Part shown: positions 3,142 through 58,057 of the stretch, piece after piece
How positions within the stretch are numbered: the first letter of the stretch is position 1
Layout: every line of letters starts with the position of its first letter
Assembly (NCBI GenBank): GCA_964399235.1
Contig: CAYNQC010000002.1
Coordinates: 3,224 to 67,223, forward strand
Direction of reading: 5' to 3'
Length of the DNA stretch: 64,000 nt
Origin: an uncultured Candidatus Bathyarchaeia archaeon
GTDB taxonomy: Archaea > Thermoproteota > Bathyarchaeia > Bathyarchaeales > Bathycorpusculaceae
Translations under genes and position numbers: made by a program
Notes under the pieces: generated by a model
Database searches by the model: none
What the model was told of the DNA's origin: nothing
What the model saw: the letters and a program-made list of their open reading frames with translations, nothing else

Positions 3142-3468
3142 TCAGTATTCAAACGTTAGCAGACTATCCCGGTATTGCTTCTCCAGAGACTGGCAGGCGC
3201 TGGTATAGGTAGCAAATTTGTCTAGGTTTTTGTGGATCAGGTCGGGACATGCCTTGAAGGTATGTCGATCTTTGGGAAGGTTCACCCGGGCGGCGATCGC
3301 GGCCAGGGCGGTATCCAGCACATGGTTGGTGATCTCTAAAGTCTCTCTGATCTCCATAGGCGTCTTACCATTGCAGAGCAGCTCCACAATTCTAAGTCCG
3401 ATAAGCTCCTTGGGGTTTGCGGTTGCCCAACCAGATTGGGCCTCTTCTAAAATTTTAAGGGTATCCAC
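3142..3468 (-). CDS. putative HTH DNA-binding protein
   Basis: GKTPMEIRETLEITNHVLDTALAAI looks like a helix-turn-helix. Confidence 0.45.
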   Translation of the reverse strand: MDTLKILEEAQSGWATANPKELIGLRIVELLCNGKTPMEIRETLEITNHVLDTALAAIAARVNLPKDRHTFKACPDLIHKNLDKFATYTSACQSLEKQYRDSLLTFEY

Positions 3469-12963: not shown

Positions 12964-13986
12964 TTAATTTCTTTGCTCAAAAAATGGATTGATTACCTTT
13001 GAATCGGCTTCTTGCGCGGCCATCCTTGCGAGCATTCGGCGGTGCATCTCTGCCCTGGTTTCTGCCATCTGGGATTCCTCACGCTGCGCCTTGGTTGGCC
13101 ATAGGGCTGGCGGAGGAGAGGCTGGGACGAGCTGCTTGGAAACGACTGCCCACTCAAGGTTGAAATGCAAGTCCGGCCCAAAGAAGGTTGCCGCTTGCTT
13201 GACGAATTTCGTCCCAATCATCTTCTCGGCTTGGCAGTAAGCCAGATATCGCTTGGTTCCCTCCAAGAGGGCCTCTTCCTTGAACCCCTGATTGAGCCGT
13301 GCTTTCCATGCCTTCCATGCCGAGCGCTTGTTGTCGCTGGTGTGTCGCGTTGGATACACAACCCAGGCTTCCAAAAACATGGGCGAGAAGTCGAACTCAC
13401 TCGTCTCGGCGTCCGCTTTAGCGGGCGGCGTGACAATATCTTTTTCCTTATCTTGTGCTTTTTCTTTCAGGCCATCTAAATCTTTAAGACCGTCTATAGG
13501 AACAGGCTTCTTGCCGTTTAACGAAGTAGTTCTGTTTTCTGTTTCTGTTTCTGTATCTGTTTCTGTATCTGTATCTGTTTCTGTATCTGGGGCGTTTCTG
13601 AAACGTTTCAGAAGCGTTTCATCAGGCGCTTCATATAACCCATCAGATTGACCTAACCTATCTGATTTATCTCTGAATTTCTTAACCCGAGGGGTTGATG
13701 TGTCGCTTATAAATTGGCGCTTATTCCAAGAAAATATTTGCCAATTTTCATCAATTAATCCAGAAAAAATGAGCGTTTTTTTAACTTTTTCTGCCTTTTT
13801 TTCAGATAATCCGAGGGCTTTTAGCATCATTTTTTCTTTGACTGCCGGGGCCACATCCCGGTCGATTATCCCCGTACACTTAGCGCAGAGTATTGCGATG
13901 AAGTGTCGTTGGTCCTCAAAGCTGAGGGCTTGCATAACGGGGTCAGTGGCGAATTCTGCGTGTAGGCGAAACCAGGGCTGGCTCAT
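12964..13986 (-). CDS. replisome organiser / replication initiator-like protein
   Basis: N-terminus WFRLHAEFATDPVMQALSFEDQRHFIAILC resembles phage replisome-organiser N-domains; ATG 13986 with GGAGGG SD; iterons upstream. Confidence 0.6.
   Translation of the reverse strand: MSQPWFRLHAEFATDPVMQALSFEDQRHFIAILCAKCTGIIDRDVAPAVKEKMMLKALGLSEKKAEKVKKTLIFSGLIDENWQIFSWNKRQFISDTSTPRVKKFRDKSDRLGQSDGLYEAPDETLLKRFRNAPDTETDTDTETDTETETENRTTSLNGKKPVPIDGLKDLDGLKEKAQDKEKDIVTPPAKADAETSEFDFSPMFLEAWVVYPTRHTSDNKRSAWKAWKARLNQGFKEEALLEGTKRYLAYCQAEKMIGTKFVKQAATFFGPDLHFNLEWAVVSKQLVPASPPPALWPTKAQREESQMAETRAEMHRRMLARMAAQEADSKVINPFFEQRN
13530..13590. repeat. ten tandem WWCTGT hexamers inside the replisome-organiser gene
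   Basis: ttctgt tttctgt ttctgt ttctgt atctgt ttctgt atctgt atctgt ttctgt atctgg; encodes a (T/D/E)n linker TETDTDTETDTETETE. Confidence 0.85.
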
Positions 13987-14070
13987 GACACCACCCTCCG
14001 ACTGTTCTTTTGCCATTGGTGGTCAGCCCTCTGAGCTGTTGGTGGATTGACTTTACTGCGTGTTTTAGAT

Positions 14071-14180
14071 ATCATTGATATGCGTCCCTTGTTCATGGAA
14101 TGATTTGCGCCTCCGGTCATGGATATGCCCTTTCGGTCATTGATTGATTTGCACCTTCGGTCATTGATTGATTGCACCTC
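14071..14180. repeat. five iteron-like direct repeats (core TCATKGAT, last two nearly identical, 23-24-mers)
   Basis: tcggtcattgattgatttgcacct (14133-14156) and tcggtcattgattgattgcacctc (14157-14180), plus degenerate copies at about 14071, 14092 and 14114; spacing 20-24 bp. Confidence 0.75.
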
Positions 14181-14745: not shown

Positions 14746-14808
14746 TGTATAGCACGATTCGAAATTAATGTAAAGTGTCGTTGACAAGCGTGATAATCAT
14801 GATACAGT
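14746..14808. promoter_or_regulatory. divergent sigma70-like promoters of the switch region
   Basis: Plus: TTGACA (14781-86), 16 nt, TACAGT (14803-08). Minus: TTTACA (14774-69), 17 nt, TATACA (14751-46). Palindrome ATCATGAT in the plus-strand spacer. Confidence 0.4.
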
Positions 14809-16347: not shown

Positions 16348-17165
16348 GTCAGCTAGACAACATCAGATCGGATAGGACGCTAGTCATTTTCAATAAGATT
16401 GAAAAGAACGCCAAGGAATTGGCCAACGCCAGTCCACGCTTTGCCGCCGAGGCGGGGCGCATAGCCAGGATTGCCAAGAACGCGGTCAGGAGCAATATGC
16501 AATTAGCGGACTGCGAGCTGCAGTCGGTGCTTGCTTCGGTAGCCGTCGCTGCCCAGATGGGGTTGGAGATTAATGTCAACGGGCAGGCATATCTGGTCCC
16601 CTACAAGGGGCGCTGCACACTGATTCCTGGCTGGAAGGGGTTGCTCTCGCTGGTGGGTAGGACCGGGCAGGCGGTCGCCTGGACTGGGGTGGTGCGGGAT
16701 GGCGAGACCTGCGTCTACAGCCGGGGTAGCGATCCAAAAATAGAGATTTTCGGGGAGGCCCCGGATGACGCCGAGATTAATGCTTATTATGCGGTCGGGC
16801 GAGTTCGTGACCTGCAGTGGCCAATCGTCGAGAAGTGGTCGGCAGAGAAATGCATTGCCCACAGAAATCGTTATAACAAAGTTGGTGCAAGACATTACTC
16901 GTACCAGCACTTTGAGATGTATGCCAGAAAAGTGGTGCTGCTTCAGGTGCTTAAGTATTTACCCAGCTCTACAGAGCTGACCATCATGAGCAATCTTGAG
17001 TATGCAGCCCAGGCCGGCAAGCAGGATCTAAATTTCAGCAATATCGATGATGTGCTGGATGGTTCTTTTGATGTCACTGAAGATGAGGCTGCCCCTGAAG
17101 AGGCCGCGACGGATGAGGCTCCAAGTGAGGCTCAAGGAAGCGCCCCTTTCGGGACCGTGGGTTGA
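16344..17165 (+). CDS. recT: RecT-family single-strand annealing recombinase
   Basis: QMGLEINVNGQAYLVPYKGRCTLIPGWKGLLSLVGRTGQ is RecT-like; ATGA coupling to exonuclease. Confidence 0.85.
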   Translation: MSQLDNIRSDRTLVIFNKIEKNAKELANASPRFAAEAGRIARIAKNAVRSNMQLADCELQSVLASVAVAAQMGLEINVNGQAYLVPYKGRCTLIPGWKGLLSLVGRTGQAVAWTGVVRDGETCVYSRGSDPKIEIFGEAPDDAEINAYYAVGRVRDLQWPIVEKWSAEKCIAHRNRYNKVGARHYSYQHFEMYARKVVLLQVLKYLPSSTELTIMSNLEYAAQAGKQDLNFSNIDDVLDGSFDVTEDEAAPEEAATDEAPSEAQGSAPFGTVG

Positions 17166-17177
17166 GAGAGTCTTACG

Positions 17178-17319
17178 GGTAAGGATGGGCATGGCAAGCC
17201 GTGGCGGGGGCTGGGCGGGTCGGGTTAGGTAGGTTTGGGCGGGGCGTGGTGGGGCCGGGTAGTCCAAGGTGCGGGACGGTCTGGGATGGGTTGGCAAGGC
17301 TAGGCGAGGCGAGGGCTTT
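17178..17319 (+). repeat. (GGNNN)n pentamer array A1
   Basis: 28 pentamers in one register, 25 start with GG; ends 2 nt before ATG 17320. Confidence 0.9.
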
Positions 17320-17595
17320 ATGAGCGAACAAGTACAGATTTATTCGAGATCGGAGCTGACGGCCGAGGAAAAGTTGGCCCAAACAGTGAGTGCGCTTAGG
17401 CGCTTGGAGCGATGGGCACAGGCATATCCAGTGAGCGTGTTCCCGGAACCAGATATGGAGCGGGTCCATCAGGTCTTGAAGGATGCCGGCATGGGATTGG
17501 ATGGTGTTTCTGCGTATGTGATCAGGTACGTCCTGAGCGAGGTTCAGGATATCGTAAATGGCGGACTAAGAGGAATTGACGACGATGATGACTGA
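17320..17595 (+). CDS. hypothetical protein
   Basis: Start MSEQVQIY immediately after array A1. Confidence 0.6.
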   Translation: MSEQVQIYSRSELTAEEKLAQTVSALRRLERWAQAYPVSVFPEPDMERVHQVLKDAGMGLDGVSAYVIRYVLSEVQDIVNGGLRGIDDDDD

Positions 17596-17872
17596 AGACG
17601 AGATTCGTGCGGATGAGCGAGCGAACTGCATAGCGTTGATAGGTATGTTTGATGACTTGCCCGGTCCAATTCCTCCCCCTATCCACGCAATCATCAGTGC
17701 GAGCCCGGAAGCGGCAGAGATGTTCTCTAGGTCGCTAGTGCTGTTCACAAAAATAAAGGTGATCGCCATGTTGCGCGGGATCAACCCAGACGAGGAGCTA
17801 TCCGATACGGATAAGGCGATTCTGGTGAGTGACCTGGCGATGCACGACCCGAGGCGCGCGAGGAGTCATTGA
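17585..17872 (+). CDS. hypothetical protein
   Basis: First ATG (MMTEDE) in ORF 17576-17872; track start is TTG. Confidence 0.5.
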   Translation: MMTEDEIRADERANCIALIGMFDDLPGPIPPPIHAIISASPEAAEMFSRSLVLFTKIKVIAMLRGINPDEELSDTDKAILVSDLAMHDPRRARSH

Positions 17873-17873
17873 T

Positions 17874-18299
17874 ATGGATCTACAGATTCCGGTTGATGAG
17901 CATCCTGATGAGATGATTACCCCAGCAGAGGCCATGCTGATGATGATGGCAAACAAGTACACGGTGGGGCCGGACATGGACCAGACTACCGAGACCATCA
18001 CTTTTCTGGATGGCGCTGAGGCCACTATAACGGCCCACACCTTCATCTGGGATCTGCCCGGCAGGGCAGCCACCGAGACGTCTCAGCAGCTCCTGTCGGT
18101 GGCCTGGAACGTGATTAGCGAAGCATGGCCGCCCGGGTCTTATCTGAGGTGGCGGATGCGGCCGGTGTTTGAGGAGAAATACAACGAAGAGGATCAGTTG
18201 TGGATGTGCCGGCTGCGGATGCGAATAGGGGCATTCTGCCTGCCTTTTCTGGACAATGATTCTGACTCGGAAAGCTTACCGGAAAGATTGAATAGTTAA
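17874..18299 (+). CDS. hypothetical protein
   Basis: ATG 17874 with AGGAG 8 nt upstream. Confidence 0.6.
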   Translation: MDLQIPVDEHPDEMITPAEAMLMMMANKYTVGPDMDQTTETITFLDGAEATITAHTFIWDLPGRAATETSQQLLSVAWNVISEAWPPGSYLRWRMRPVFEEKYNEEDQLWMCRLRMRIGAFCLPFLDNDSDSESLPERLNS

Positions 18300-18300
18300 T

Positions 18301-18370
18301 GGAGTGGGGTGGTGCGCGAAGCCAAGGGCTGGCGAGGCATGGGATGGCGAGGCGTGGAAGGGCTGGGTTT
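18301..18370 (+). repeat. (GGNNN)n pentamer array A2
   Basis: 14 in-phase pentamers ggagt ggggt ggtgc ... ggctg ggttt. Confidence 0.85.
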
Positions 18371-18403
18371 TTATTTGTTTTCAATAACTTAGAGGTTACT
18401 ATC

Positions 18404-18631
18404 ATGGCTAAAAAGGCGGAACGAGTAATTACGAACGACGGGATGGAGAGTCTCGGCGGGGTCTCAAATGATGCGGAAGTGGAGTATGCGGCGGCAATAC
18501 CCTATGTAGTGGAAGTCACCATCCAGGGCGATGCCCCTCTACTCTTTCATCGCTGGAGTTGTGATGCGGTGGAGGCGAAAAGCAAGGCTGCTAAAAACAG
18601 CGCTGTCAAAAAATCCGATAACGTCGAGAGT
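18404..18631 (+). CDS. exon 1 of intron-split conserved phage gene (76 codons)
   Basis: ORF ends with TAA directly after the U that wobble-pairs with the intron guide sequence. Confidence 0.7.
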
Positions 18632-18926
18632 TAAACTATGGCTCTCGTAAAACTTTCCCTGATCAATGGGGAATAGCCCAACTACATAATACCGAGTCAT
18701 AGAGGCTCAATGTTATAGTAAGTGGCCAACCCTCAACAAGCAGGTGGAAGACATGATTTCCGATTAGGGGTTGTGCCTCGACCGCCAGCAGTTGCAGAGA
18801 CTAAGTGGGAAAGCTCTCACCGGCACCAAAAGTTAGTGAGGGAAGCGATAGTCCGACCTGTGCAGGAATGCGCAGAGATTGGCAGAAATGACCAATCCAC
18901 CCCGAGCCAGGGGGAGTAACAACGTG
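18632..18926 (+). ncRNA. ORF-less group I intron (3' end 18914/18924/18926 not resolved)
   Basis: P1 cgagagU.G with ggctctcg (18640-47); P-like gcaGGTGGaaga; Q-like CCGCCagcag; R gcAGAGACUAAgu (18795-804); S gAUAGUCCGACC (18847-58); P2, P8, P9, P9.1 hairpins. Confidence 0.8.
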
Positions 18927-19340
18927 TACGTTTATAGATGTGCCAATGGGAACCTCGGTCTTCCAGGTGAGTATTGCCGGATGAGTCTGATTGGTGCTGC
19001 CAAGTACCGTCAGGATCCCCGCAGCCCTCGCAAGTCGGCGATGGACCTATTCAAGGCTGGGGTTATCAGCTTGACCGAGCTGGCCGATCTGGGCCAGAAC
19101 GATTGGGACTACCTGGACCGCCGTCGGGTGATGGTGCAACGCTCGGGTATTACTCGGGTACGTCCAGCGCTGGAGACTGGGTGGAAGGCGACGTTTAAGT
19201 TACAAATTCAATTACCGGAATACATTAACGCATCTTTCCTGCGGTCGGTGATTCAGGATGGTGGAAAGTTGATCGGGCTGGCTGATTTTAGACCCAGCTA
19301 CGGACGGTATTCTATCATCAATTTCAGTGAGTTAGGTTGA
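18927..19340 (+). CDS. exon 2 of intron-split gene (137 codons)
   Basis: No ATG or SD of its own (track start is TTG); joining to exon 1 gives ...KKSDNVES/YVYRCANGNLGLPGEY..., 213 aa. Confidence 0.65.
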   Translation, partial: YVYRCANGNLGLPGEYCRMSLIGAAKYRQDPRSPRKSAMDLFKAGVISLTELADLGQNDWDYLDRRRVMVQRSGITRVRPALETGWKATFKLQIQLPEYINASFLRSVIQDGGKLIGLADFRPSYGRYSIINFSELG

Positions 19341-19352
19341 TTTAAGTTAAAG

Positions 19353-20151
19353 CGAGGCATGGGTTGGCAGGCGGGTCGATGGGGTGGAAAGGATTGGCTA
19401 GGCGGGGCAGGGCGCGGCAGGGTATGGCGGGGTCAGGCTATCTTCGGATGGGTTTGGCAGGGCTGGGCTGTGGGTGGCAAGGCGAGGGGTGGTAAGGCCG
19501 GGGTTTTCTCGGATGTCTTCATTGAGGGCATCCCGGAGAGTCAAGGCTGGGGAGGGTCCGCCGGGGTGTTGGCATGGGGTGGCTTGGCCCGGTGGGGGCG
19601 GGCGTGGCGAGGTATGGTTTGGCATGGGGTGGGGTGGCGAGGCTTGGTGTGGGCTTTCTCAAGCTCCTTGCTGTGCAGGGGGCTTCGGAAAAGGAGTGGC
19701 TAGGCGGGGGAAGGCGAGGCGGGGCTTGGCGGGGAGTGCGCAGGCTAGGTTGGGTCTAGGTGCGGTGGGGTTTGGCTTGGGCTTTTCAAGCACCTCCACC
19801 CGGGGGTGCTTCTGAGGCGGTCTGGTCGGGTGGTGCTGGGCATGGTACGGCTTGTTCCGGGCAGGCTCGGCTTGGGAAGGCAAGGTCCGGCGCGGCTTGG
19901 TGGGGGTAGGCGCGGGTCGGCGGGGTTGGGGCAGGCAAGGGGTGGCGAGGGTTTTCTCGGACATCTTCGATGAGGGTGTCCCGGAAAGCTCGGGCGGGGC
20001 CAGGCATGGCCTGGGTGCGGGGAGCGCTGGATTGGCCAGGCGAGGGGTGGTTGGCAATGGAATGGTCCGGCACTGGCGTGGCAAGCGGGGGCGCGGCGCG
20101 GCATGGTGAGGTTGGGGCAGGCGGGGGCTGGGTAGGCATGGCATGGGTTTT
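19353..20151 (+). repeat. (GGNNN)n array A3, about 0.8 kb, with four embedded hairpin elements
   Basis: Pentamer runs interrupted by hairpins at about 19504-40, 19661-85, 19788-811 and 19952-88; ends at ATG 20152. Confidence 0.9.
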
Positions 20152-20403
20152 ATGAGAAAGAAATTACAGTTTCCAGTTCCTCCTAAGTACGATCTGACGA
20201 CAGACCCACAGGACGGCAAACGACCTTACCGGTTTTGCGTTGATGGTATCCCTATGGTGGTCTGGTTGGGCGCCAAATTGGATGATCCCCTGGTCCGCTT
20301 GATGTTGGCCGGCGAGGAGCACCGAGGGAAGAGAGTAACCTTTGACGAGCCCCGGCAGGGTTGGCCAAAGCTTGATTCAATACCTGAGTATCATGGCAAG
20401 TGA
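20152..20403 (+). CDS. hypothetical protein
   Basis: Start MRKKLQ directly after gggttttATG. Confidence 0.55.
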   Translation: MRKKLQFPVPPKYDLTTDPQDGKRPYRFCVDGIPMVVWLGAKLDDPLVRLMLAGEEHRGKRVTFDEPRQGWPKLDSIPEYHGK

Positions 20404-20467
20404 CAGGCTAGGCGAGGCAGGGGGAGGTCGGGGCTGGTTTGGGACGGCGTGGCTGGGTGAGGTTTTT
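20404..20467 (+). repeat. (GGNNN)n pentamer array A4
   Basis: 12 pentamers between stop 20403 and ATG 20468. Confidence 0.85.
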
Positions 20468-20644
20468 ATGCTAGTGAAGGACTTTATTAAGTTGCTGGAA
20501 CAGTGCCCACAGGAGTCTGTGGTTGTGCTGGAGGATCGTGATGGCGACCAGGTTTCTGATATAGCTGTCACACTCAAAGGGCCGGCTGAGTACATCAAAA
20601 GCGATGGGCCGGTGGTGCTTATCCATATAGATTTTTCCTGGTGA
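20468..20644 (+). CDS. hypothetical small protein (58 aa)
   Basis: MLVKDFIKLLEQ... follows gaggtttttATG. Confidence 0.5.
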   Translation: MLVKDFIKLLEQCPQESVVVLEDRDGDQVSDIAVTLKGPAEYIKSDGPVVLIHIDFSW

Positions 20645-20844
20645 GGCCCGGCAAGGGATGGCAAGGGGTGGCTGGGCAAGGTTCGCCGAGGAGTGGCGCG
20701 GGCCGGGATGGGCGGGCGTGGGCGGGCGGGGTAGGGCATGCTAAGGTGGGGCCGGGATAGGCCGGGTGGGGCCTGGCAGGGCCGGGGATGGTCGGGACCG
20801 GCAGGGCCGGGGATGGGTGGGTGAGGTATGGTTTGGCATGGTTT
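20645..20844 (+). repeat. (GGNNN)n pentamer array A5
   Basis: 40 pentamers in one register, 38 start with GG. Confidence 0.9.
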
Positions 20845-20865
20845 TTATTTGAGGGGGAGCAAGCA

Positions 20866-21132
20866 ATGACGGACGCGATCGGGATGTACATGAAAGATGA
20901 CCGACGCCCGCAGGTTGATATCGCAGGGGGCGATCGCCGCTGTGCGAGTTGTCGGTATTGGTCTGCGACGCTATCCCGCGCTGTGGGCTCCAGGGCTGTC
21001 CAGGCCGTTTGTTTAGCGCCGGACGGGCCACACTTTGAGACGTGGTGCTTTCCAACTCAATGGTGCCCTTCCTGGGCTCCTGGTGAGCCCGTGGACACGC
21101 CGACTTTTGAGGCAATTGTGTTTCCAGGTTGA
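20866..21132 (+). CDS. Cys/Trp-rich hypothetical protein
   Basis: ATG 20866 with GGGGGAG SD. Confidence 0.55.
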   Translation: MTDAIGMYMKDDRRPQVDIAGGDRRCASCRYWSATLSRAVGSRAVQAVCLAPDGPHFETWCFPTQWCPSWAPGEPVDTPTFEAIVFPG

Positions 21133-21315
21133 CGGTTTGGTGAGGCAAGGTTGGGCTGGGGTAGGTCCGGTATGGCCAGGCTGGGATGGGCAAGGTGAGG
21201 GAAGGAAAGGCCAGGCCAGGTTGGGCAGGGGAGGGAGAGGCTCGGGTTGGTATGGTAGGGGGAGGCGTCGGCAAGGTCAGGATGGGGCGGGCTCGGGTAG
21301 GTGTGGCGAGGTTTT
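21133..21315 (+). repeat. (GGNNN)n pentamer array A6
   Basis: 36 in-phase NGGNN pentamers from stop 21132 to ATG 21316. Confidence 0.9.
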
Positions 21316-21690
21316 ATGAATTACGAATCGGTTGATCCGGGTTTCAAGAGTCGGGCGGATTTTTGGGTCGGTATCGGTCCTGGGGCCGAGTGGTTGGGGT
21401 CCGTATGCCACGATGGCGGGCAATGGCAATACCCGAGTATGGGCTTGCTGCCGCTGACCAGTGAACAGGATTACCGGCAACGGGTTACAACTATCCTCCA
21501 GAACGATCCGCTGGCGAGTATGCCCTCGGATGGCTGGCCATGGCCTTGGCCAAGCTCACAGGACACAGATTTTGTATATTCCTGGCATGACGGATGCGTA
21601 CAACTCGAAAAGCGTAATGATTGGCCAGATATGTCCGACAGGCGTTCCGCTGTTTTGGGGCCGAAGTCGGGGATTTATGTTGTTGATTGA
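21316..21690 (+). CDS. hypothetical Trp-rich protein
   Basis: Start MNYESVD after gaggttttATG. Confidence 0.6.
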   Translation: MNYESVDPGFKSRADFWVGIGPGAEWLGSVCHDGGQWQYPSMGLLPLTSEQDYRQRVTTILQNDPLASMPSDGWPWPWPSSQDTDFVYSWHDGCVQLEKRNDWPDMSDRRSAVLGPKSGIYVVD

Positions 21691-21725
21691 GCTACGGTTT
21701 GTGGAGACAGGCTCTAGCCCGGCTC

Positions 21726-22025
21726 GGCTGGGCAGAGAAAGGGGTGGCGTGGTGTGGCTGGCTGGGGTCCGGCAGGGCTCGGCGGGCGTTGGCTTGGTAG
21801 TCAGAGGCTGGCAGTGGTAATGACTGGCTTGGCACGGCGTGGCAGGGCCAGGTGGGGACGGGCAAGGGGTGGTACGGCGGGCTCCGGCAAGGCGGGGTCA
21901 GGCAGGGATGGGCGAGGCGCGGACGGGTATGGTGCGGGGGTGTAGGGTCAGCAGAGGTTAGGTGTGGCCTGGTCGGGACGGGTATTGGCTGGCAAGGTCT
22001 GGGCTGGCAAGGTCTGGTATGGCAA
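21726..22025 (+). repeat. (GGNNN)n pentamer array A7
   Basis: 60 pentamers in one register, 50 start with GG; contains direct 15-mer gctggcaaggtctgg twice. Confidence 0.9.
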
Positions 22026-22032
22026 TGATTAA

Positions 22033-22052
22033 CCCCCCCACGGATGGGGGGG
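22033..22052. terminator. GC hairpin between convergent operons (bidirectional terminator candidate)
   Basis: ccccccca-cgga-tggggggg, 8-bp stem; T-rich ctccgtgtttgt follows on plus strand, ttaatcatt on minus strand. Confidence 0.5.
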
Positions 22053-22071
22053 CTCCGTGTTTGTCTGGTTG

Positions 22072-22335
22072 CTAGGTGGTAGCGCTGGCCTTAGCATCAA
22101 GCAATTTCAAAACCCTGCACAAAACATACGCCTGACCGCCGGCAATGTGGCCATCACCGTAGATCGGATGCCCTGGAATCTCGCCCTCCCAGTCCAGGGT
22201 GAAGGGATTTTTCCAAGCGCGGCCTAGCAGGTCGCCACCGACCTTGGAGCGCACAATCCATTCCCTGCTGTAGTAGTTGAGACTCAGGTCGAGCCCTAGC
22301 TCAGTTGCTTCGTCAATGATCGCCTTAATTTTCAT
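22072..22335 (-). CDS. hypothetical protein
   Basis: 87-aa ORF, last gene of minus-strand early operon. Confidence 0.6.
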   Translation of the reverse strand: MKIKAIIDEATELGLDLSLNYYSREWIVRSKVGGDLLGRAWKNPFTLDWEGEIPGHPIYGDGHIAGGQAYVLCRVLKLLDAKASATT

Positions 22336-30004: not shown

Positions 30005-30406
30005 ATGGGTAGACGCTCCCTTGACCTGGCTGGTAAACACTTCCATCGCTGGGTGGTTCTGGAACAGGCGTCCGGCTTACCGGGTTGGTGGCTCTGCTGC
30101 TGTAAGTGTGGGACTGTGAAGACGGTGCTGGGGAGTTCCCTGGTGTATGGCAACAGCAAATCCTGTGGGTGCTTGCAGAAAGAGCTGCAGCGTGTACGGG
30201 CTACTGAGCCTACCAAGCGCAGTCATCTGCTGACCTATCAGGGTAAGACCCAGTCATTGGCGCGCTGGTCGCGTGAGTATAACCTGGCTGCCGACACCAT
30301 CCGCAATCGCCTGAATCGGGGCTGGGATCTGGAGAAGGCCTTGAGCACTCCCTCGCGGGCTGCGCGCTCTCCTGATCTGGTGACGGTCTTCGAGGTTATG
30401 CCGTGA
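30005..30406 (+). CDS. zinc-ribbon plus HTH DNA-binding protein upstream of terminase
   Basis: WWLCCCKCGTVKTV...SKSCGC ribbon; C-terminal QSLARWSREYNLAADTIRNRLNRGWDLEKAL HTH-like. Confidence 0.6.
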   Translation: MGRRSLDLAGKHFHRWVVLEQASGLPGWWLCCCKCGTVKTVLGSSLVYGNSKSCGCLQKELQRVRATEPTKRSHLLTYQGKTQSLARWSREYNLAADTIRNRLNRGWDLEKALSTPSRAARSPDLVTVFEVMP

Positions 30407-33400
30407 TTCCTAACCTGGGTGCCTTGCCCCTCTGTGAGCTGGCCCCGGCGCATCATGCGATCCTGATCGAGCAGGAGCTGTCTCGGCGGGCTGAGAAGAA
30501 AATCCTGGAGCGTGACTTCGCGGCCTTCGCCAAAGCGGCCTGGCACGTAGTAGCCCCGGATCGGGAGCTGGTTTGGAACTGGCACCACGATCTGATCTGC
30601 AACTACCTGGAAGCATTCGCCCTGCGCTACATCCGCAACCTGCAGATCAACATCCCCCCGCGCTGCACCAAGTCCATCCTGTGCGCGGTCCTCTACCCGG
30701 TATGGGTATGGATCAAGCAGCCCAACCATCAGTTCCTGACCTTGAGCTTCAAGGAAGACCTCTCAACCCGCGATGCCGTGGCCTCGAGGAACCTTATGGC
30801 CTCAGAGTGGTTTCAGCGCAGGTGGAGCGATCGCTTCAAGTTCAGCGGGGATACCAACGCCAAGACCAGATACCAAAACGATCATTCCGGGCATCGGATC
30901 TCCTCGGGTATGACCTCTGGCGTGTTGGGTGACGGTGGTGATTGCCTTCCTGGGGAGACCAGGGTGATGACGGAGGTAGGGGAGATTCGTATCGACACCC
31001 TCACCCAGTTGATAGACAAGCCGAGGGTGTTATCCTACAATCATCTGACCGAACAACTCGAATATCGCCCTGTGGTGGCGGCCCGGGAGCTTCCTGCAGA
31101 TGAACTTATCGAATTTAAAACATCCAGCGGTAATACGCTCAGAACTACCCGGCGGCATCGTCTGTACGTCCATAAATCCGGTTACCGGCCAGCGAAGAAT
31201 ATCTGCCTTGGTGAAAGATTCCTCGAACTCGTGCCCGGTATGCCATGGGTCCAAACTCAAGGAGAGCCAGTTCTGCAGCCCCTGTTATCACCAGATGAAG
31301 CGCCAGGAAGTGGAGACGGTGTGCTCGTTATGTGGGACCCCGGTAATCCAGGAACTCTCGGCATTCAGGAAAAAAGTCGAGCGGGATGGGCAGACCGAAT
31401 TCTATTGCTGTGTCGAGCATTCGCGGGCGCATCACGCAGTCAAGAATCGCCGGAAGTGCGCGGTTTGCGGATCCAGGGTAGCGAAGAAAACCAGGAAATA
31501 CTGCTCGACAGCCTGCCGGGAGTCAGCCAGAAAGCCCGCCTTGGAGATTGCCTGCGAAACCTGTGGGAAGCGATTTCATCCGGCGAACTCCAAGGTTCGG
31601 TATTGCTCGCTGGACTGTTCGGCGCTGGCCCACAGCCGGCGTATGCGGGGAGAAGGGAATACCAGATACCAGGATGGGAGATGCGTCCAGAGTGGGTTCC
31701 GTGCGATGCGGCCGGTGATTATGGAGCGGGATGGGCGGGCTTGTGTGGCTTGCAGGACGCAGGAAAACTTGATCGTGCATCACATGGACCGGGACCGGAA
31801 GAACAATCGGGTAGAGAATCTGGTCGTTCTGTGTCAGCCCTGCCACGTCAGGAGGCATCACTGCGCACCTCCGGCGTTCGAGTGGTTGCCAGGGTACGTC
31901 ATGGGGGCGAGCCAGTCTATGACCTCCAGGTTGCAGGAAACAGCAACTTCTTTGCTAACGGAATTCTGTCCCACAACAGCATAATAATCGACGATCCGCA
32001 CGACCCAGAGGGCGCGCAGTCGGATGCTCAGCGGGCGACCACCCTGCGGTCCTACGACGGTCAGCTCATCACGCGCTTGAACGATCGGCGCTCGGGCGGG
32101 ATCCTGATCTTCATGCAGCGGCTGCACGACCACGATCTGTGCGGGCATGTGCTGGCCAGGGAGGGGCAGGCTGATCAGGGCGGGCGCTGGCATCGCCTGG
32201 TAGTACCCATGCGCTACGACCCAGAGCTCAGCCTGTCGACTTACCCTGAAGCCGGCAAGGACCCGCGCACCAAGCCTGGGGAGCTGTTGGATCCGATCCG
32301 TTTCCCAAGAGGGGAAGTAGACTTGCTGGAGACGACCCTGGGGCCTTACAACGTCTCGGGCCAGCACCAGCAGTCCCCATCCCCCCCGGGCGGAGGGATC
32401 CTGAAAACGGCCTGGTGGCAGATGTGGCCCAAGGAGCGCCCGCTGCCCAAATGCAGGGAAATCTTCGCCTCCCTGGATACCGCCTTCACTGAGCGCCATC
32501 ACAAGGAAATGGAGCAGACAGGTCATGCGGCGCGCTCGGCCTGCACGGTCTGGGGGGTGTTCGAGGAGGACAATGGGGCGCCTGGGGTGATGCTGATTGG
32601 GTCCTGGGCTGACTGGATTGATTGGCCGGCCCTGGTGAAAAAGGCCAGGGAGACCTACGATCGCCACGACCCTGACTACATCCTGATCGAGAAAAAGGCC
32701 TCTGGCATATCCCTGCTGCAGGACCTGAAGTACCAGGGCATCCCTGTCGTCGAGTACACGCCGGATGGTGACAAGATTGCCCGCGCCTACGCCTGTCAGT
32801 CCATCCTGTCCTCGGGCTTTGTGTGGTATCCGGATCGTGCCTGGGCGCACGAGGTGGTGGCGGAATGCGCTGCTTTCCCGCGTGGCTCACTGAAGGACTA
32901 TCCCGATACCTGCGTGACTCCGGATACGGAAATCTACTGCGCCGAGGGCGTGAAGCCGATTCGTGACATAGTCCCTGGAGATTGGGTGCTTACTCATGCG
33001 GGTAGATTCAGAAGGGTCACCAGCGTGATGACCAGAACCAGCGACCATATCCACCGCTTCAAGGCTAAGTGCCTGGATGAAATATCGATAACCGGGAACC
33101 ATCCAATGTTTATCCAGAGGGCTGATGGGGTGGGATGGATACCGGTTGCCGAGGTCAAGCCAAGAGAGAAGTTTCAGTTCTATAGAAAAGGCAAGGTAGT
33201 AAGCTGTCCCGTTTACTTGAAGTCGGCCGATTTTGATATGGCTGTGCTGCCGGAAATACGCGGGGCTGACGGGGCTTGGTCAGTGCTTGTTGGTGCCTTC
33301 GCCGAGGAAGAATTGACTGGCTTGCGTGCCGGACGGAAGAAGTGTGAGAAAAAATTTAGTCTGAATTATGACCAGGGATGGTTGTTTGGGTTGTTTCTTG

Positions 33401-34179
33401 CAGAGGGGTGCGTAACCAAGAGCCGGGGTATCCCCAGTAAAATTGTCATCGCCTGTAATGAGGGCGCCATGCTGAAGGCGCAGAGCATCATCAGCAGCAC
33501 TTTTGGGGTTGATGTCAAGATTCGGAATGAAGGGGTTTGCCATAAGCTGGTGATTTGCAGAAAAGCGCTCGTGCCGGTATTTGAAACCTTCGGTCACCTC
33601 GCTGAAAATAAATATATCCCCCGGTGGGTCATGGAGGCCCCCATATCCTTCGTAAAAGGGTTCGTCGAGGGTTACGTAACCGGTGATGGAACTATCGATC
33701 ATGACGCTATACGATGCTCGTCCGCATCGAGATCTCTATTGCTGCAGCTTAGGTTATTGCTGATCAGATTAGGGAAATCGGCAAGCCTTTGCATGGAAAA
33801 GCCGGCCGGGGTGCGCGTCATCAACGGCGCCATGTGTGAGTGTTTGCCGGCGTACTCGATTAATTGGGTGACCAGGGACGATACGACGACGATAGGAAGA
33901 CCGCTGGAGGGCGGCGGTATGGGCTACTGGGTCGAGAGAAATGACAGGATCGAGGGGCCTGTTGAAGTCATGAACCTGTCCGTCGATGAAGACGAATCTT
34001 ACGTAACGACCGGCGGGACTGTGCATAACTGCACGCAGGCGTGGCTGCGAATCAAGAAATCAGGGCTGCTGCGCCGAAAAGTCATCCCCTTCAGGGACCC
34101 TGGACTTGATGACGAGGAGGATGAGCCGGCATTTGTGAAACCCAAGAAATACCGCAGGGTAGTAGGTATTTACGGCTAG
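30403..34179 (+). CDS. terL: terminase large subunit precursor containing two inteins (540 aa after splicing)
   Basis: GTG start in GTGA overlap; extein motifs ...GVLGDGGD/SIIIDDPHD (Walker B-like) and ...KDYPDT/CTQAWL; QRLHDHDL. Confidence 0.85.
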   Translation: MIPNLGALPLCELAPAHHAILIEQELSRRAEKKILERDFAAFAKAAWHVVAPDRELVWNWHHDLICNYLEAFALRYIRNLQINIPPRCTKSILCAVLYPVWVWIKQPNHQFLTLSFKEDLSTRDAVASRNLMASEWFQRRWSDRFKFSGDTNAKTRYQNDHSGHRISSGMTSGVLGDGGDCLPGETRVMTEVGEIRIDTLTQLIDKPRVLSYNHLTEQLEYRPVVAARELPADELIEFKTSSGNTLRTTRRHRLYVHKSGYRPAKNICLGERFLELVPGMPWVQTQGEPVLQPLLSPDEAPGSGDGVLVMWDPGNPGTLGIQEKSRAGWADRILLLCRAFAGASRSQESPEVRGLRIQGSEENQEILLDSLPGVSQKARLGDCLRNLWEAISSGELQGSVLLAGLFGAGPQPAYAGRREYQIPGWEMRPEWVPCDAAGDYGAGWAGLCGLQDAGKLDRASHGPGPEEQSGRESGRSVSALPRQEASLRTSGVRVVARVRHGGEPVYDLQVAGNSNFFANGILSHNSIIIDDPHDPEGAQSDAQRATTLRSYDGQLITRLNDRRSGGILIFMQRLHDHDLCGHVLAREGQADQGGRWHRLVVPMRYDPELSLSTYPEAGKDPRTKPGELLDPIRFPRGEVDLLETTLGPYNVSGQHQQSPSPPGGGILKTAWWQMWPKERPLPKCREIFASLDTAFTERHHKEMEQTGHAARSACTVWGVFEEDNGAPGVMLIGSWADWIDWPALVKKARETYDRHDPDYILIEKKASGISLLQDLKYQGIPVVEYTPDGDKIARAYACQSILSSGFVWYPDRAWAHEVVAECAAFPRGSLKDYPDTCVTPDTEIYCAEGVKPIRDIVPGDWVLTHAGRFRRVTSVMTRTSDHIHRFKAKCLDEISITGNHPMFIQRADGVGWIPVAEVKPREKFQFYRKGKVVSCPVYLKSADFDMAVLPEIRGADGAWSVLVGAFAEEELTGLRAGRKKCEKKFSLNYDQGWLFGLFLAEGCVTKSRGIPSKIVIACNEGAMLKAQSIISSTFGVDVKIRNEGVCHKLVICRKALVPVFETFGHLAENKYIPRWVMEAPISFVKGFVEGYVTGDGTIDHDAIRCSSASRSLLLQLRLLLIRLGKSASLCMEKPAGVRVINGAMCECLPAYSINWVTRDDTTTIGRPLEGGGMGYWVERNDRIEGPVEVMNLSVDEDESYVTTGGTVHNCTQAWLRIKKSGLLRRKVIPFRDPGLDDEEDEPAFVKPKKYRRVVGIYG
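30943..31977 (+). mobile_element. intein 1 (345 codons) at the Walker B-like motif
   Basis: Starts CLPGETRV, block B GNTLRTTRRHRLYV, ends PVYDLQVAGNSNFFANGILSHN followed by S. Confidence 0.8.
31100..31984 (+). CDS. HNH endonuclease ORF in +1 frame nested within intein 1
   Basis: Five CxxC-type pairs, then CVACRTQENLIVHHMDRDRKNNRVENLVVLCQPCHVRRH; GGGAG 10 nt upstream of ATG 31100; stop 7 nt past the intein end. Confidence 0.6.
   Translation: MNLSNLKHPAVIRSELPGGIVCTSINPVTGQRRISALVKDSSNSCPVCHGSKLKESQFCSPCYHQMKRQEVETVCSLCGTPVIQELSAFRKKVERDGQTEFYCCVEHSRAHHAVKNRRKCAVCGSRVAKKTRKYCSTACRESARKPALEIACETCGKRFHPANSKVRYCSLDCSALAHSRRMRGEGNTRYQDGRCVQSGFRAMRPVIMERDGRACVACRTQENLIVHHMDRDRKNNRVENLVVLCQPCHVRRHHCAPPAFEWLPGYVMGASQSMTSRLQETATSLLTEFCPTTA
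32911..34029 (+). mobile_element. intein 2 (373 codons) with LAGLIDADG homing endonuclease domain
   Basis: Starts CVTPDTEIY, block B ITGNHPMF, LAGLIDADG motifs WLFGLFLAEGCV and FVEGYVTGDGTI, ends SYVTTGGTVHN followed by C. Confidence 0.85.
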
Positions 34180-46836: not shown

Positions 46837-46845
46837 GGAGAGGTG

Positions 46846-49800
46846 ATGGCTAATTGGTGGGAAACTCCGCAGCAGCCGGTTCCACTGCCGTCCGCTCAGC
46901 CGGATCTCGGCTCAATGGATTTGGCGCAACTATACAGAGAAGCTTATGGGTTCCGTGATGTGCCCCCTTCTGCTGCGCCCCTCCCCCCTGTCGCGAGCAC
47001 CGAACCAGTACCACCCCAGCCCGGGCTGCTCTCCGATGTAGGTAATCTGCTCAAGCGGGGCTATGCCAGCACCGCCGAGGGCGTCAACTGGCTGGCCGGA
47101 CAAACCCCGGGGCTCAACAATATTCCGGCCTTGGACTGGCAGGGTAACGCTGATTACTGGAAGCAGGTCGCCGATCAGACCACCCAGAAGCTCTCGCTCG
47201 CCCAGCAGGCTGCCGGTGAAAAGAAGTTCTTCAATGAAGATTACACCCCCGGGGAAGCCTGGAAAGACCCTCGTTCCTACCTGGGTGGTGCTGTCGAGTC
47301 GATTCCTGGCACTGTGGTCGGCATGGCTGCTGGTGCGCCGATCGCCGGCATTGTCAATAAGGTCGGGATGGGGCTGCTTACCCGTGGCGCTACGGCGGCG
47401 GCCGAGAAGGCCCTGGCGGGTGGGGCTGAGGCAGCGGCCGTCAAGGCGGCGGGACAGGTCACTAATAAGGCGGCTGGTCGGGTCGCGATGGGGGCTGGCG
47501 CTGTAGGCTATGGTGCTGGTGAAGGAGTTACGGCGGCGGCTACGGATGGGGCGCAGGCGCGTGATCTGGTTATGGGTCGGTCCCCCGAGGAGATGGCTGC
47601 TTCCCCGCTGTATCAGCAGTTGCTGGCAAAAGGACTACCCCCTGACCAGGCCCAGCAGCAGGTAGCCGATACGGTTGCCGAGCAGGTAGCGACTCGGGCC
47701 GGGATCTCGGTGGCCGTCATGGGCGCACCTATGGGCGCCGTCTTTGGTAAGTGGTTCCACTCTGCCGGCGGTGAAAAAATCACCAAATCTCTGCTGGGTG
47801 AGCTGGCAGTGGGTACGCTCGGAGAGGGCGCGCAGGAGTTCCCACAATCTGGTGCTGAGCAGTTTTTTCAGAACCAGGCCATCAAGCAGCATGTCGATCC
47901 CAAGCAGAAGCTCTGGGAAGGGGTGCTTAATGCATCGGTGGCGGGCTCTGTCTCGGGGGCGGTCATGGGTGGCGCCATGGGTGGCTTCCAGGGTATTGGG
48001 GCCAAGGCCGGCGCCGCCAATGCAAGAATCAATGAAGAGCTAAGCAAGGCTGCTTTTGCGAACAATCTGCAATTTGCGACGGCTGATGATCTGCATGCTG
48101 CCATGGCGCACCTGGATACGCTCGGTCAGCAGAAGGATCTGCCTAAAGAGTCAATTGATCGGGTCGCTCAGGCCCGCAGCACCATCCAGGCCGAGATGGC
48201 CCTCAGAGCCACTCCTGAGACGCTGGCACAGCCTCTGCGTGACGACCAGGGCAACGTACAGCCCAGAGCTGAATCCGCCTTCCTGGGGCTCTCAGAGCGT
48301 CCACACGGGCTTAGCGATGACCAGCTAGCCGAAGCCGCCAATCGTCCGCTAGGTGAAGATGCGCCGGCTGAATGGGGGGCCGCCCAGGATCGCTACAAAG
48401 CCGAGATCGCCCATCGGACTGCCCTCAGTAATACCGTCAAGCACTTTACCGATAACCCGGGGGCGGTTGGTGGTGTCAGCTCCAGAATACTAGATATAGT
48501 GTCTGGCAGGCCGCTTACTCCCAAAGGGTATGGGTCTACTGACTTCAACCTGGCCACCCTGTCAGATGATCTGTTGACTCGCTATCGGATGGCGGGTGAA
48601 GTGCTGTTGCGTGACCATCCTGAGACACTTGGCAAGAAGCAAACATCCAAGTTGACCGAGGCGGTAGACCAGCTCCATCAAGAGGCCGATCGCCGCGCTG
48701 CCGGCCAGCAGGGCAACCCCGAGGAGATCAAGGTTAATGAGCAGGTCACCAGCCTCGCTTCCCAGCCTGCTAAGAAATTCAGTGATACCGTTAAAACGCT
48801 CTCTGCAGAGGCGCTCACGCGCGCTGCGAAGATTATTGAGTCACGCCTCCAGCTTGAGCCCGCGCTGGCTCCAAAACTGGAAGAGATCAACGCCAGAGTC
48901 GGGGTCCTACAGGCCCAACAGGCGAGCGTTCAACAAGCAAGTGTCGCTACGCCTGCGCCTGAGAGCGTACAGGGAGCTGCACCGGTCGTTGAGGCTGTCG
49001 CTCCTGCAACCCCTGCCCCCGCGCCTGCGGCGGCTGTCCCGGAGTCTGTCGTGGCCCCGGCGCCCAGCGCCCAGGCAGCCCCAGCGGTAACTGCGCCAGC
49101 ACCATCAGCACCATCAGCGCCATCAGCGCTCGCCCTGCCTGCCCCGGCCACGCCGGTTGCAGTGGAGAGGGTAGCCGCCGGCCTGCCGGTGATCTACTCC
49201 AATAAGGACCGGATCAAAGAGGTCAAGGCCAACCCCAACTACAACGTGATCGCCCTCCCGGATGGGCGCGCCAAGGTGGTTGGTGTGCTGCATCCAAAGA
49301 CTCAACAGTGGATCGGATTTCCCCCTAATGCACCCGTACCAGCCGCGCCTAAAGCCCTACCCGCTCCCGCGCCGACCACTCCCGCTGCTCAACCCGTGGA
49401 GGCAGCTCAGCCGGCTGCGGAAGTTGCCCCGAAGGGTGGTGCTGCAAGTGCTATTCCTAGCGCTCCATCGGTCGAGCCGCCCATCGAGGCGCCAAGCGTA
49501 CCTGTCACTAAACCCAAAAAGGTAACCTCCAATGCCACTAGCATACGTCAAGATCAGAGATTCCCTAGCCAAAGGGGCCAAGAAGGACAGTCCGGCGTAC
49601 AACAAGGCTCAGAGCCGGGCGGCGGCAATTTACGTGTCCAAGGGAAAAAGCAAGTCGCAGCGAAGCAAGTTGGCGAAACAGTTACACGACAAGTAGTTTC
49701 AACGAAGGGCAAATTTGGCCTTCCTAAGTCGTCTCCAGATGGTGTCGCCGCAAACGCCAAGCTGCTTCCCCACGGCGCGAACCGACAAGCCACTCTCGTA

Positions 49801-57884: not shown

Positions 57885-57994
57885 TGACCAAACCCAACCG
57901 TACCATGCCGTGCCCGACCTATCCATTCCTGGCCTCTGCACGCCTCGGCCGTCCCTGCCATGCCCGGCCGTCCCGATCCAAGCCTTACCTGGCC
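57885..57994 (-). repeat. (GGNNN)n pentamer array A8, G-rich strand is the minus strand
   Basis: Plus strand reads 22 in-phase NNNCC pentamers (tgacc aaacc caacc gtacc atgcc ...), 20 end in CC. Confidence 0.85.
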
Positions 57995-58057
57995 ACGTCG
58001 CGCACCACAAAAGGATGCATGGAATGAGCCATGTTTGTTTGGAATTAGCAAAAAGGT

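Follow-up and report, generated by a model that had tools for sequence, protein, structure and literature searches.

The window analysed here is a stretch of 64,000 nucleotides (positions 3,224 to 67,223, forward strand, of contig CAYNQC010000002.1 in assembly GCA_964399235.1, deposited under an uncultured Candidatus Bathyarchaeia archaeon), and it is a tailed-phage genome. Seven tracts of GGNNN pentamers (arrays A1–A7) run through its rightward early operon, an eighth (A8) lies elsewhere, and a gene situated between tracts A2 and A3, vipr, encodes a minimal Cas7-like RAMP. The tracts are very probably the vrRNA guide arrays of a Viral Interference Programmable Repeat (VIPR) system, with its protein gene among them. 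From left to right the operon comprises a PD-(D/E)XK exonuclease, RecT, A1, three small open reading frames (ORFs), A2, vipr and the A3 cluster, then four small ORFs preceded by the last A3 sub-array, A4, A5, and A6, and finally A7 and a terminator-like hairpin. Promoter-like sites are found upstream of the operon at 14047-14075 and 14781-14808. The arrays, with the z score of their period-5 signal, are:

Array A1, 17178..17319, plus strand: about 28 pentamers, 25 GG-initial; z = 20.9; ends in GGCGAGGGCTTT, then the ATG of the next ORF (17320).
Array A2, 18301..18373, plus strand, directly upstream of vipr: 14 pentamers, 12 GG-initial; z = 11.2 (tract 18301-18370); ends in GGGTTTTTAT.
Array cluster A3, 19353..20148, plus strand: five sub-arrays and four structured tails; 97 pentamers, 95 GG-initial; z = 4.9 (tract 19353-20151).
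A3 sub-arrays, plus strand: 19381-19505, 19571-19655, 19693-19783, 19859-19953, and 19993-20148.
A3 tails, plus strand: about 19504-19543, 19655-19696, 19783-19817, and 19952-19990.
Array A4, 20404..20467, plus strand: 12 perfect GGNNN units; z = 10.4; ends in GGTTTTT, then the ATG of the next ORF.
Array A5, 20645..20849, plus strand: 41 pentamers, 39 GG-initial, with perfect runs of 9, 10, and 20 units; z = 43.7 (tract 20645-20844).
Array A6, 21133..21315, plus strand: 36 pentamers, each GG-initial, as one run of 27 units and one of 9, shifted by 1 nucleotide; z = 31.9.
Array A7, 21726..22025, plus strand, at the 3' end of the operon: 60 pentamers, 50 GG-initial; z = 52.5.
Array A8, 57885..58004, minus strand, remote, vrRNA-like: 24 pentamers, 20 GG-initial.

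The periodicity was assessed as Fourier power of G at period 5, compared in each tract separately with 500 dinucleotide-preserving shuffles. All seven tracts lie 5-52 standard deviations above the shuffles (z of 4.9-52.5), and the phase-locked period of five nucleotides, noted in the original prediction from the letters of the sequence, is borne out. Its counts of GG-initial pentamers are likewise reproduced (25 of 28-29 in A1, 38 of 40 in A5, 50 of 60 in A7). The tracts are supported as non-coding, with the G-rich strand as the sense strand of the flanking genes, and they occupy the intergenic gaps as proposed, every non-overlapping gap of the plus-strand operon being filled. The exception is 19353-20151, which had been taken for a single tract and consists of five sub-arrays with four structured spacers; the low score of A3 is due to the phase shifts between these sub-arrays and to the non-array spacers. 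A sliding period-5 scan of the whole window recovers the same seven tracts and adds A8 on the minus strand. An isolated G period-5 signal of 60 nucleotides at 32141-32200, within the terminase/intein gene, has a power of 2.1 against a threshold of 2.0 and is probably due to chance.

Over 288 parsed pentamers, G occupies position 1 in 97% and position 2 in 95%, position 3 is C in 44%, T in 26%, G in 20%, and A in 9% of units (a pyrimidine, Y, in 72%), and positions 4 and 5 are nearly random. This composition agrees with the GGY/NN repeats of the published VIPR systems. The seven operon arrays are on the same strand as vipr, with A2 directly upstream and A3 directly downstream of it, and the repertoire amounts to about 290 repeats in eight arrays. 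The longest perfect GGNNN run has 27 units (21134-21265), and many of the perfect runs have 9-20 units. The register is maintained through broken pentamers, so that damage has come by substitution and not by insertion or deletion. Neighbouring pentamers share 0.24-0.30 identity at lags 1-7, which is the chance level and argues for a constraint on the spacing of GG rather than for recent slippage or young tandem duplication.

Arrays begin just 3' of stop codons and extend to 2.7 kb past vipr. At 10 of the 12 ends of arrays and sub-arrays the sequence is RGG(G)YTTT(T), after which comes ATTTG, a hairpin, or the start codon ATG of the next ORF. The four A3 tails are of two kinds, each a hairpin starting at the U-run; of the base pairs, 4 of 15 and 5 of 22 show compensatory changes between copies and relative to the related locus L370. 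The length of A4, 12 units, equals that of one published vrRNA. For arrays that have no hairpin tail, cleavage at GG|UUUU is one possibility; the motif resembles the preference of RNase E. A8 lies 36 kb from the main arrays, on the opposite strand, downstream of a terminator-like hairpin (58080-58060) behind a 913-residue minus-strand gene. A possible TTGCAT-N17-TACTAT promoter near 58170-58140, seen by eye and not called by the promoter scan, could give rise to a short RNA that ends at this terminator. In gene calls and ORF lists, the arrays (19359-20155, 20788-21132, and others) are covered by spurious G/W/R-rich ORFs and, on the antisense strand, by proline-rich ones; a 114-residue "gene" at 10472-10816 of contig L121 is an example. 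Such calls will inflate the counts of hypothetical proteins in VIPR-bearing phages.

The vipr gene is read in two parts, separated by an insert:

vipr exon 1, 18405..18631, plus strand: residues 1-76, ending ...KKSDNVES.
Intron-like insert in vipr, 18632..18926, plus strand: 295 nucleotides, starting with an in-frame TAA; no homing-enzyme ORF.
vipr exon 2, 18927..19340, plus strand: residues 77-213, with thumb residue R155 and the G-loop GLADFRPSYGRY.

The spliced product of 213 residues has no match in Pfam, and its sole match among PHROGs is to an uncharacterised PHROG. When compared with the PDB (phmmer), it matches 36pp_D, "SUSP1 Vipr protein," at E 2e-4, and a profile built from 46 homologues of about 60% identity matches the same chain over residues 6-188 of 202, with E 1.4e-11. 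This match to 36pp was the lead to VIPR, as it pointed to two preprints of 2026. The family counts 6754 members at E <= 1e-3. SUSP1 H17 aligns with H49, the thumb residue R138 with R155, and the G-loop D177-W178-R179 with D196-F197-R198, and all five of these residues of the window protein (H49, R155, D196, F197, R198) are invariant or nearly so across its family. A single-sequence AlphaFold model reached a pLDDT of 39 and was replaced by an alignment-based AlphaFold2 model (pLDDT 81.4, pTM 0.75). The top 50 Foldseek matches of the latter are all Cas7/Csm3/Cas7-11/Cmr RAMPs, led by type VII Cas7, Csm3, and Cas7-11 (best E 1.6e-6); a direct structural match to Vipr is missing because the fold library predates the release of the Vipr structures. 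Alignment and model together identify the gene between A2 and A3 as encoding a Vipr, a stand-alone minimal Cas7-like protein with a predicted RAMP fold (RRM core, G-loop, thumb) and conserved residues for contacting G1 and G2.

Arrays and gene are also linked outside the window. When viral contigs were scanned blind for the DNA pattern (GGNNN)13GG, at least 120 contigs matched; among the matches listed, 101 have high-complexity degenerate GGC/GGT-NN arrays and 19 have simple repeats or poly-G. When all ORFs of the window were searched against the matched loci by tblastn, a single gene recurred, namely the ORF pair 18405-18634 and 18879-19340, usually located immediately upstream of the arrays and present as one uninterrupted gene in relatives. 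A homologue by the Vipr profile is found in 73 of the 101 array loci among the matches listed, with array and gene on the same strand in 73 of 73, and in 0 of the 19 simple-repeat loci listed; many of the 28 listed array loci with no Vipr match have their arrays near a contig end. Independently, and from the DNA pattern alone, this confirms that degenerate GGNNN arrays are associated with Vipr genes in environmental phages. A look at related phage sequences, which the original prediction had advised, finds that arrays directly flank vipr in relatives, with spacers between arrays that are locus-specific, repeated, and hairpin-forming; related loci and phage DSL-LC04 also carry an array directly upstream of vipr. 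In four loci with a Vipr about 60% identical (L010, from 7065, L027, L062, and L098), the first gene past the arrays starts M..LPFPPS/LPYPP..N..W(R)R. By eye its product looks like a RusA-type Holliday-junction resolvase, and the gene could reflect ordinary early-region synteny or be an accessory nuclease.

Same-strand linkage of this kind bears on the proposals, made in the original prediction, that the tracts act through nucleic-acid properties alone, as G-quadruplex 5' untranslated regions, Rho-loading antisense insulators, or Chi/KOPS-like polar signals. In favour of these proposals, the sense strand is always the G-rich one and the antisense strand is C-rich, and quadruplexes of two tetrads could form from G2N3 repeats. 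None of them, however, requires a strict 5-nucleotide register or explains the free NN, none predicts the linkage to a RAMP gene in 73 of 73 listed loci or the structured 3' tails, and in SUSP1 complexes the guanines are held by protein (10.64898/2026.04.26.720927). These proposals have no support here and are not needed, and a function of the tracts by such properties alone is barely credible.

VIPR systems consist of a phage-encoded minimal RAMP, Vipr, and of vrRNAs, which in the published cases have 9-16 YNNGG repeats and a structured 3' tail (10.64898/2026.04.26.720920, 10.64898/2026.04.26.720927; both from the Doudna laboratory). Vipr protomers polymerise on the vrRNA, one per GGYNN unit, as a helical filament; in SUSP1, G1 and G2 are held by H17, D177, R138, and W178, and the Y3 pocket excludes purines (10.64898/2026.04.26.720927). 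N4N5 pair with double-stranded DNA reading NNxNNx..., which results in an R-loop triplex and transcriptional repression, and the targets reported are satellites, prophages, and other VIPR systems, with no self-targets found (10.64898/2026.04.26.720920, 10.64898/2026.04.26.720927). Seven types with variable array layouts are distinguished, and NNNGG-type repeat variants are also reported (10.64898/2026.04.26.720920, 10.64898/2026.04.26.720927). VIPR is a very recent class of RNA-guided DNA recognition with a noncontiguous code, proposed to be ancestral to CRISPR (10.64898/2026.04.26.720920, 10.64898/2026.04.26.720927).

Carried over by analogy from the SUSP1 and Pseudomonas fulva systems, the mechanism at this locus would be as follows. 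The arrays would be transcribed with the rightward early operon and processed to vrRNAs of roughly 9-20 repeats, on which Vipr protomers would polymerise into a helical filament, one per pentamer; the period of five would therefore be the footprint of one protomer. Each protomer would hold G1, G2, and Y3 flipped out and expose N4N5, the invariant GG serving as protein handle and the free NN as programmable guide. The joined NN dinucleotides would then base-pair with double-stranded DNA as NNxNNx..., one base being skipped per unit, to give an R-loop triplex, and DNA binding may block transcription in competing phages, prophages, or satellites. The original prediction had thought of an array for a filament-forming, TRAP-like RNA-binding protein, which is essentially the logic of VIPR, with the Vipr gene lying between A2 and A3. 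Its general idea stands; what it overlooked is the partner gene amid the region and the informative NN guide bases. Its remark that no described phage element was recognised here is superseded by the two preprints: the kind of element is already described (April to June 2026), and the finding is explained rather than new.

For the protein to be made, vipr would have to be spliced across the 295-nucleotide insert. None of the Vipr homologues of about 60% identity has the insert, and from L370 it is precisely absent. L370, about 80% identical in nucleotides, has an uninterrupted homologue (P0122), also of 213 residues, in which the junction ...DNIES|YVYRC is the exact site of the 295 extra nucleotides of the window. 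The base before the insert is a U, and a GCUCUC within the insert pairs with the exon end GAGAGU, giving U.G at the junction; this pairing is present in the minimum-free-energy fold. The last base of the insert is G, the first bases of exon 2 can pair with its start (a possible P10), and the region folds with z = -4.3. A group I catalytic core (P3-P9) was not identified in the insert. Thus, from its sequence, the insert is probably a group I-like intron, and it is called probable only, because the P1-like pairing, the terminal G, the fold, and the absence from L370 stand beside the lack of an Rfam match.

Natural targets were sought under the published pairing rule with one skipped nucleotide; in VIPR systems they match at >=80% of NN positions and typically lie in competing mobile elements. 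When all 16 guide blocks are scanned locally and without gaps along the window, on both strands, nothing exceeds the shuffled-guide null, and this lack of self-targets under the 1-nucleotide-skip rule agrees with the published VIPR systems. The same 16 blocks, scanned against 1.08 Mb of 120 viral loci among the matches listed, also give nothing above that null. Exact-core scans with A4, A3.4, A3.2, A2, A3.1, and A6b in viral, metagenome, and genome collections return zero matches, or matches with chance-level flanks; these scans cover about 7 of roughly 25 possible guides, by their perfect 7-11-unit cores only, so that the lack of matches does not argue against the existence of targets. The best candidate, in locus L344 (25 of 28 NN positions, in a TolC-like gene on an AT-rich contig), has p about 0.05 after multiple testing and was set aside as most likely chance.

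Several observations weigh against a VIPR system at this locus. The locus is known here from sequence and predicted structure alone; no natural target appears in any scan made; and in an Rfam search of 17000-22200 at E <= 5 the insert, which opens with a stop codon and interrupts vipr, has no group I intron match. Position 3 is looser than GGY (72% pyrimidine, G in 20%) and might mean a slightly different reading code. A1, A2, and A4-A8 show no recognisable tail beyond a U-run, unlike A3 with its hairpins, and most arrays are much longer than 9-16 repeats. A Pfam and PHROG search recognises no vap accessory gene (vap1-6) near vipr or between the arrays, and the locus is not assignable to a VIPR type (I-VII). 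The stop codon at the insert start, the Rfam result, the relaxed position 3, and the lack of targets in the scans made would also fit a VIPR locus in decay, in which the insert has inactivated vipr and the arrays are unused relics. Such decay is nonetheless very unlikely in view of a GG content of 95-97% over about 290 units in preserved register, of two exons that retain frame, full length, and all invariant family residues, of an insert with group I hallmarks (P1 helix, U.G junction, terminal G, fold z = -4.3), and of an identical sequence assembled from at least seven sequencing runs. The reading of the tracts as guide arrays of a VIPR system remains by far the more probable.

Close relatives differ in the content of their arrays. 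Seven contigs from seven different sequencing runs (L121-L123, L371, L372, L374, and L375) are 100% identical to the window. Runs with this phage and its relatives are ERR3804377, ERR3804378, ERR4334726, ERR4334731, ERR4334732, ERR4334734, ERR4334736, and SRR32827935. In L370 (SRR32827935), the downstream array cluster has 1246 nucleotides as against 808 in the window and is mostly unalignable, with conserved tails; at 2403-2519 it contains, inside the downstream vrRNA array, an ORF for a hydrophobic protein of 38 residues (MKLHMVITFIAVLLLAVLVYRLTIGLDAWLASFGHLTQ) that is absent from the window and whose start junction, GGCGAGGGCTTTATG, matches the A1 end exactly. In L373, A6 differs by a single base over its last 66 nucleotides, whereas the block that includes the following gene is about 90% identical; A7 is wholly replaced save for the last 25 nucleotides or so and the terminator. 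Array content thus turns over between close relatives whose flanking genes are 77-90% identical, and in these alignments replacement rather than gradual drift fits a turnover of guides. A RecT-based search of viral contigs found no close relatives, megablast of the 14-24 kb region against phages found no match, and GTDB species genomes contain no exact copy of a 41-mer from vipr.

The small ORFs interleaved with the arrays and the end of the operon are:

Small ORF, 20149..20403, plus strand: 84 residues, between arrays.
Small ORF, 20468..20644, plus strand: 58 residues.
Small ORF, 20866..21132, plus strand: 88 residues, cysteine-rich, with a CxxC motif.
Small ORF, 21316..21690, plus strand: 124 residues; homologue of the same length (P0127).
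Terminator-like hairpin closing the operon, 22030..22062, plus strand: CCCCCCCACGGATGGGGGGG, then GTTTG; kept in L373.

Judged by their sequences, the interleaved ORFs (84, 58, 88, and 124 residues) look like real genes, as homologues of the same length with conservative substitutions exist (P0127, P0129). The 124-residue ORF has its conservatively substituted homologue in P0127 and a weak one in the array-bearing locus L012. The 5' part of the 84-residue ORF falls within a block 88.9% identical to L370, whose flanking arrays align poorly and are rich in insertions and deletions. Neither the interleaved ORFs nor the neighbours of vipr have a significant Pfam or PHROG family (weak matches at E >= 0.002), and by tblastn they are not conserved beside vipr in the other loci of the array-pattern scan.

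One reading of their arrangement is a double use of the arrays, as guides and as intercistronic linkers or recombination junctions, in which the 3' end GAGG-N-TTTT-ATG would provide the ribosome-binding site and start of the small ORFs and recombination between low-complexity arrays would shuffle ORF cassettes. Four of six gene-proximal arrays run right up to the next start codon (ATG), which has GAGG 6-8 nucleotides upstream, the extra ORF of L370 sits inside a downstream array behind the A1-type junction, A7 is exchanged in L373 between kept flanks, and a RecT/exonuclease pair is encoded just upstream. However, only two relatives were compared, 13 loci with a Vipr 50-60% identical have contiguous arrays and no interleaved ORFs, A7 and A8 precede no gene, and GAGG before ATG can arise by chance in G-rich sequence. 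Double use is plausible on this balance though unlikely, and it would supplement the VIPR explanation, not replace it. An extension of it would be an architecture new to the 2026 papers, with arrays spread through the early operon as junctions for small accessory-gene cassettes, with GAGG-N-TTTT-ATG both delimiting the vrRNA on its 3' side and supplying the embedded ORF with its ribosome-binding site and start codon, and with array recombination, possibly aided by RecT/exonuclease, that gains, loses, or swaps guides and ORFs in an integron-like manner. This extension is speculative and unlikely.

Outside the operon, the phage nature of the window is seen in genes for a terminase large subunit, a portal protein, and a virion protein of 3669 residues. 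The portal is at most 39% identical to portals of Roseobacter, Pelagibacter, Planktothrix, and Caulobacter podophages. The terminase large subunit (30403-34179, 1258 residues) contains two inteins, at about 180-525 (Intein_splicing) and 836-1250 (Hint_2 and LAGLIDADG); with the insert in vipr, these make the genome rich in selfish elements. The 3669-residue ORF (46843-57852) resembles DarB-like antirestriction, virion RNA polymerase, and lysin PHROGs at its N terminus and has a conserved domain at its C terminus; its product is probably an ejected internal virion protein. The palindrome GCGATCGC, known as HIP1 in cyanobacteria, occurs at 9 sites (e.g., 20930-20937) against 1.4 expected, a count reached by 0 of 100 shuffles, and is a weak hint of a cyanobacterial host. 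Possible iterons or operators are a repeat of TTCTGT x 10 at 13530-13589, in or beside the replication-initiator gene (12964-14016, minus strand), and 3.8 copies of a 24-nucleotide repeat at 14093-14179, in the regulatory gap from which the leftward and rightward operons diverge. A tRNA scan of the window found no tRNA genes.

The locus, which holds about 290 repeats and perhaps some 25 guides, is among the largest guide repertoires to be expected. It offers a test case for the processing of vrRNAs that have no hairpin tail, for guide turnover between strains, and for the carriage of accessory genes by arrays.

Among known systems, a CsrA sponge was dropped as a comparison because A occupies position 3 in only 9% of units, and the 5-nucleotide-per-monomer footprint of RecT, adenine mutagenesis of a (GGCAA)n template in the style of diversity-generating retroelements, an anti-Shine-Dalgarno "ribosome track," and an analogy to R-loops and switch regions, considered before the Vipr match, were dropped as well. 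Rfam, run at gathering thresholds on the whole window and at E <= 5 on 17000-22200, finds neither a hammerhead nor a group I intron nor any other family, and the arrays are therefore not of the hammerhead-interspersed type. TRAP shares with VIPR a homo-oligomer that reads regularly spaced short G-containing motifs on single-stranded RNA. Its fold is unrelated, and it forms a closed ring of 11 subunits that recognises (G/U)AG, with uninformative 2-3-nucleotide spacers, for attenuation control.

Class 1 CRISPR Cas7/Csm3 filaments have in common with VIPR the RAMP fold, one protomer per fixed guide step, and thumb-induced base flipping. The step differs, being 5 nucleotides in VIPR, with three bases sequestered and two read, and 6 nucleotides in Cas7/Csm3, with five read. 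The published activity of VIPR is binding and repression of double-stranded DNA and not cleavage, unlike that of class 1 CRISPR. In the window, no CRISPR-type direct repeats (TRF) and no Rfam CRISPR-DR match were found; unlike class 1 CRISPR-Cas loci, it lacks CRISPR repeats as well as cas1/cas2 and any other cas gene.

The closest deposited phage genome is that of DSL-LC04 (OR003939.1, Dishui Lake), with a portal protein 35% identical and a Vipr homologue 52.8% identical over the full length. In the region concerned (L129 5690-7058), a GGYNN array of about 300 nucleotides lies upstream of vipr, in an unannotated gap of 320 nucleotides, and the tail of this array starts with GGGTTTCTT plus a hairpin, similar to the A3 tails of the window. 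Its vipr is uninterrupted, it has no arrays downstream or between other genes, and vipr is followed by an overlapping lysine-rich gene of 147 residues, a possible vap. The homologue was deposited as a "helix-turn-helix transcriptional regulator," an annotation problem flagged here together with the spurious ORFs on arrays.

With the VIPR of Escherichia phage SUSP1 and of the P. fulva prophage (Type II), the window shares a phage minimal RAMP of about 200 residues with the G1/G2-contact residues, same-strand flanking GGY/NN arrays with hypervariable NN and structured 3' tails on some of them, one array upstream and several downstream of vipr, and no self-targets. The sequence similarity to SUSP1 Vipr is distant (E 2e-4 alone, 1.4e-11 with the profile). 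The published systems have four vrRNAs of 9-16 repeats, as against about 290 repeats in eight arrays; unlike them, the window has four interleaved small ORFs, a remote opposite-strand array, an intron-like insert in vipr, most arrays without a hairpin or pseudoknot tail, 72% Y at position 3, and no recognisable vap. The locus is thus an architecturally unusual member of VIPR: very large, dispersed, interleaved with ORFs, relaxed at position 3, and with a vipr that is probably split by an intron.

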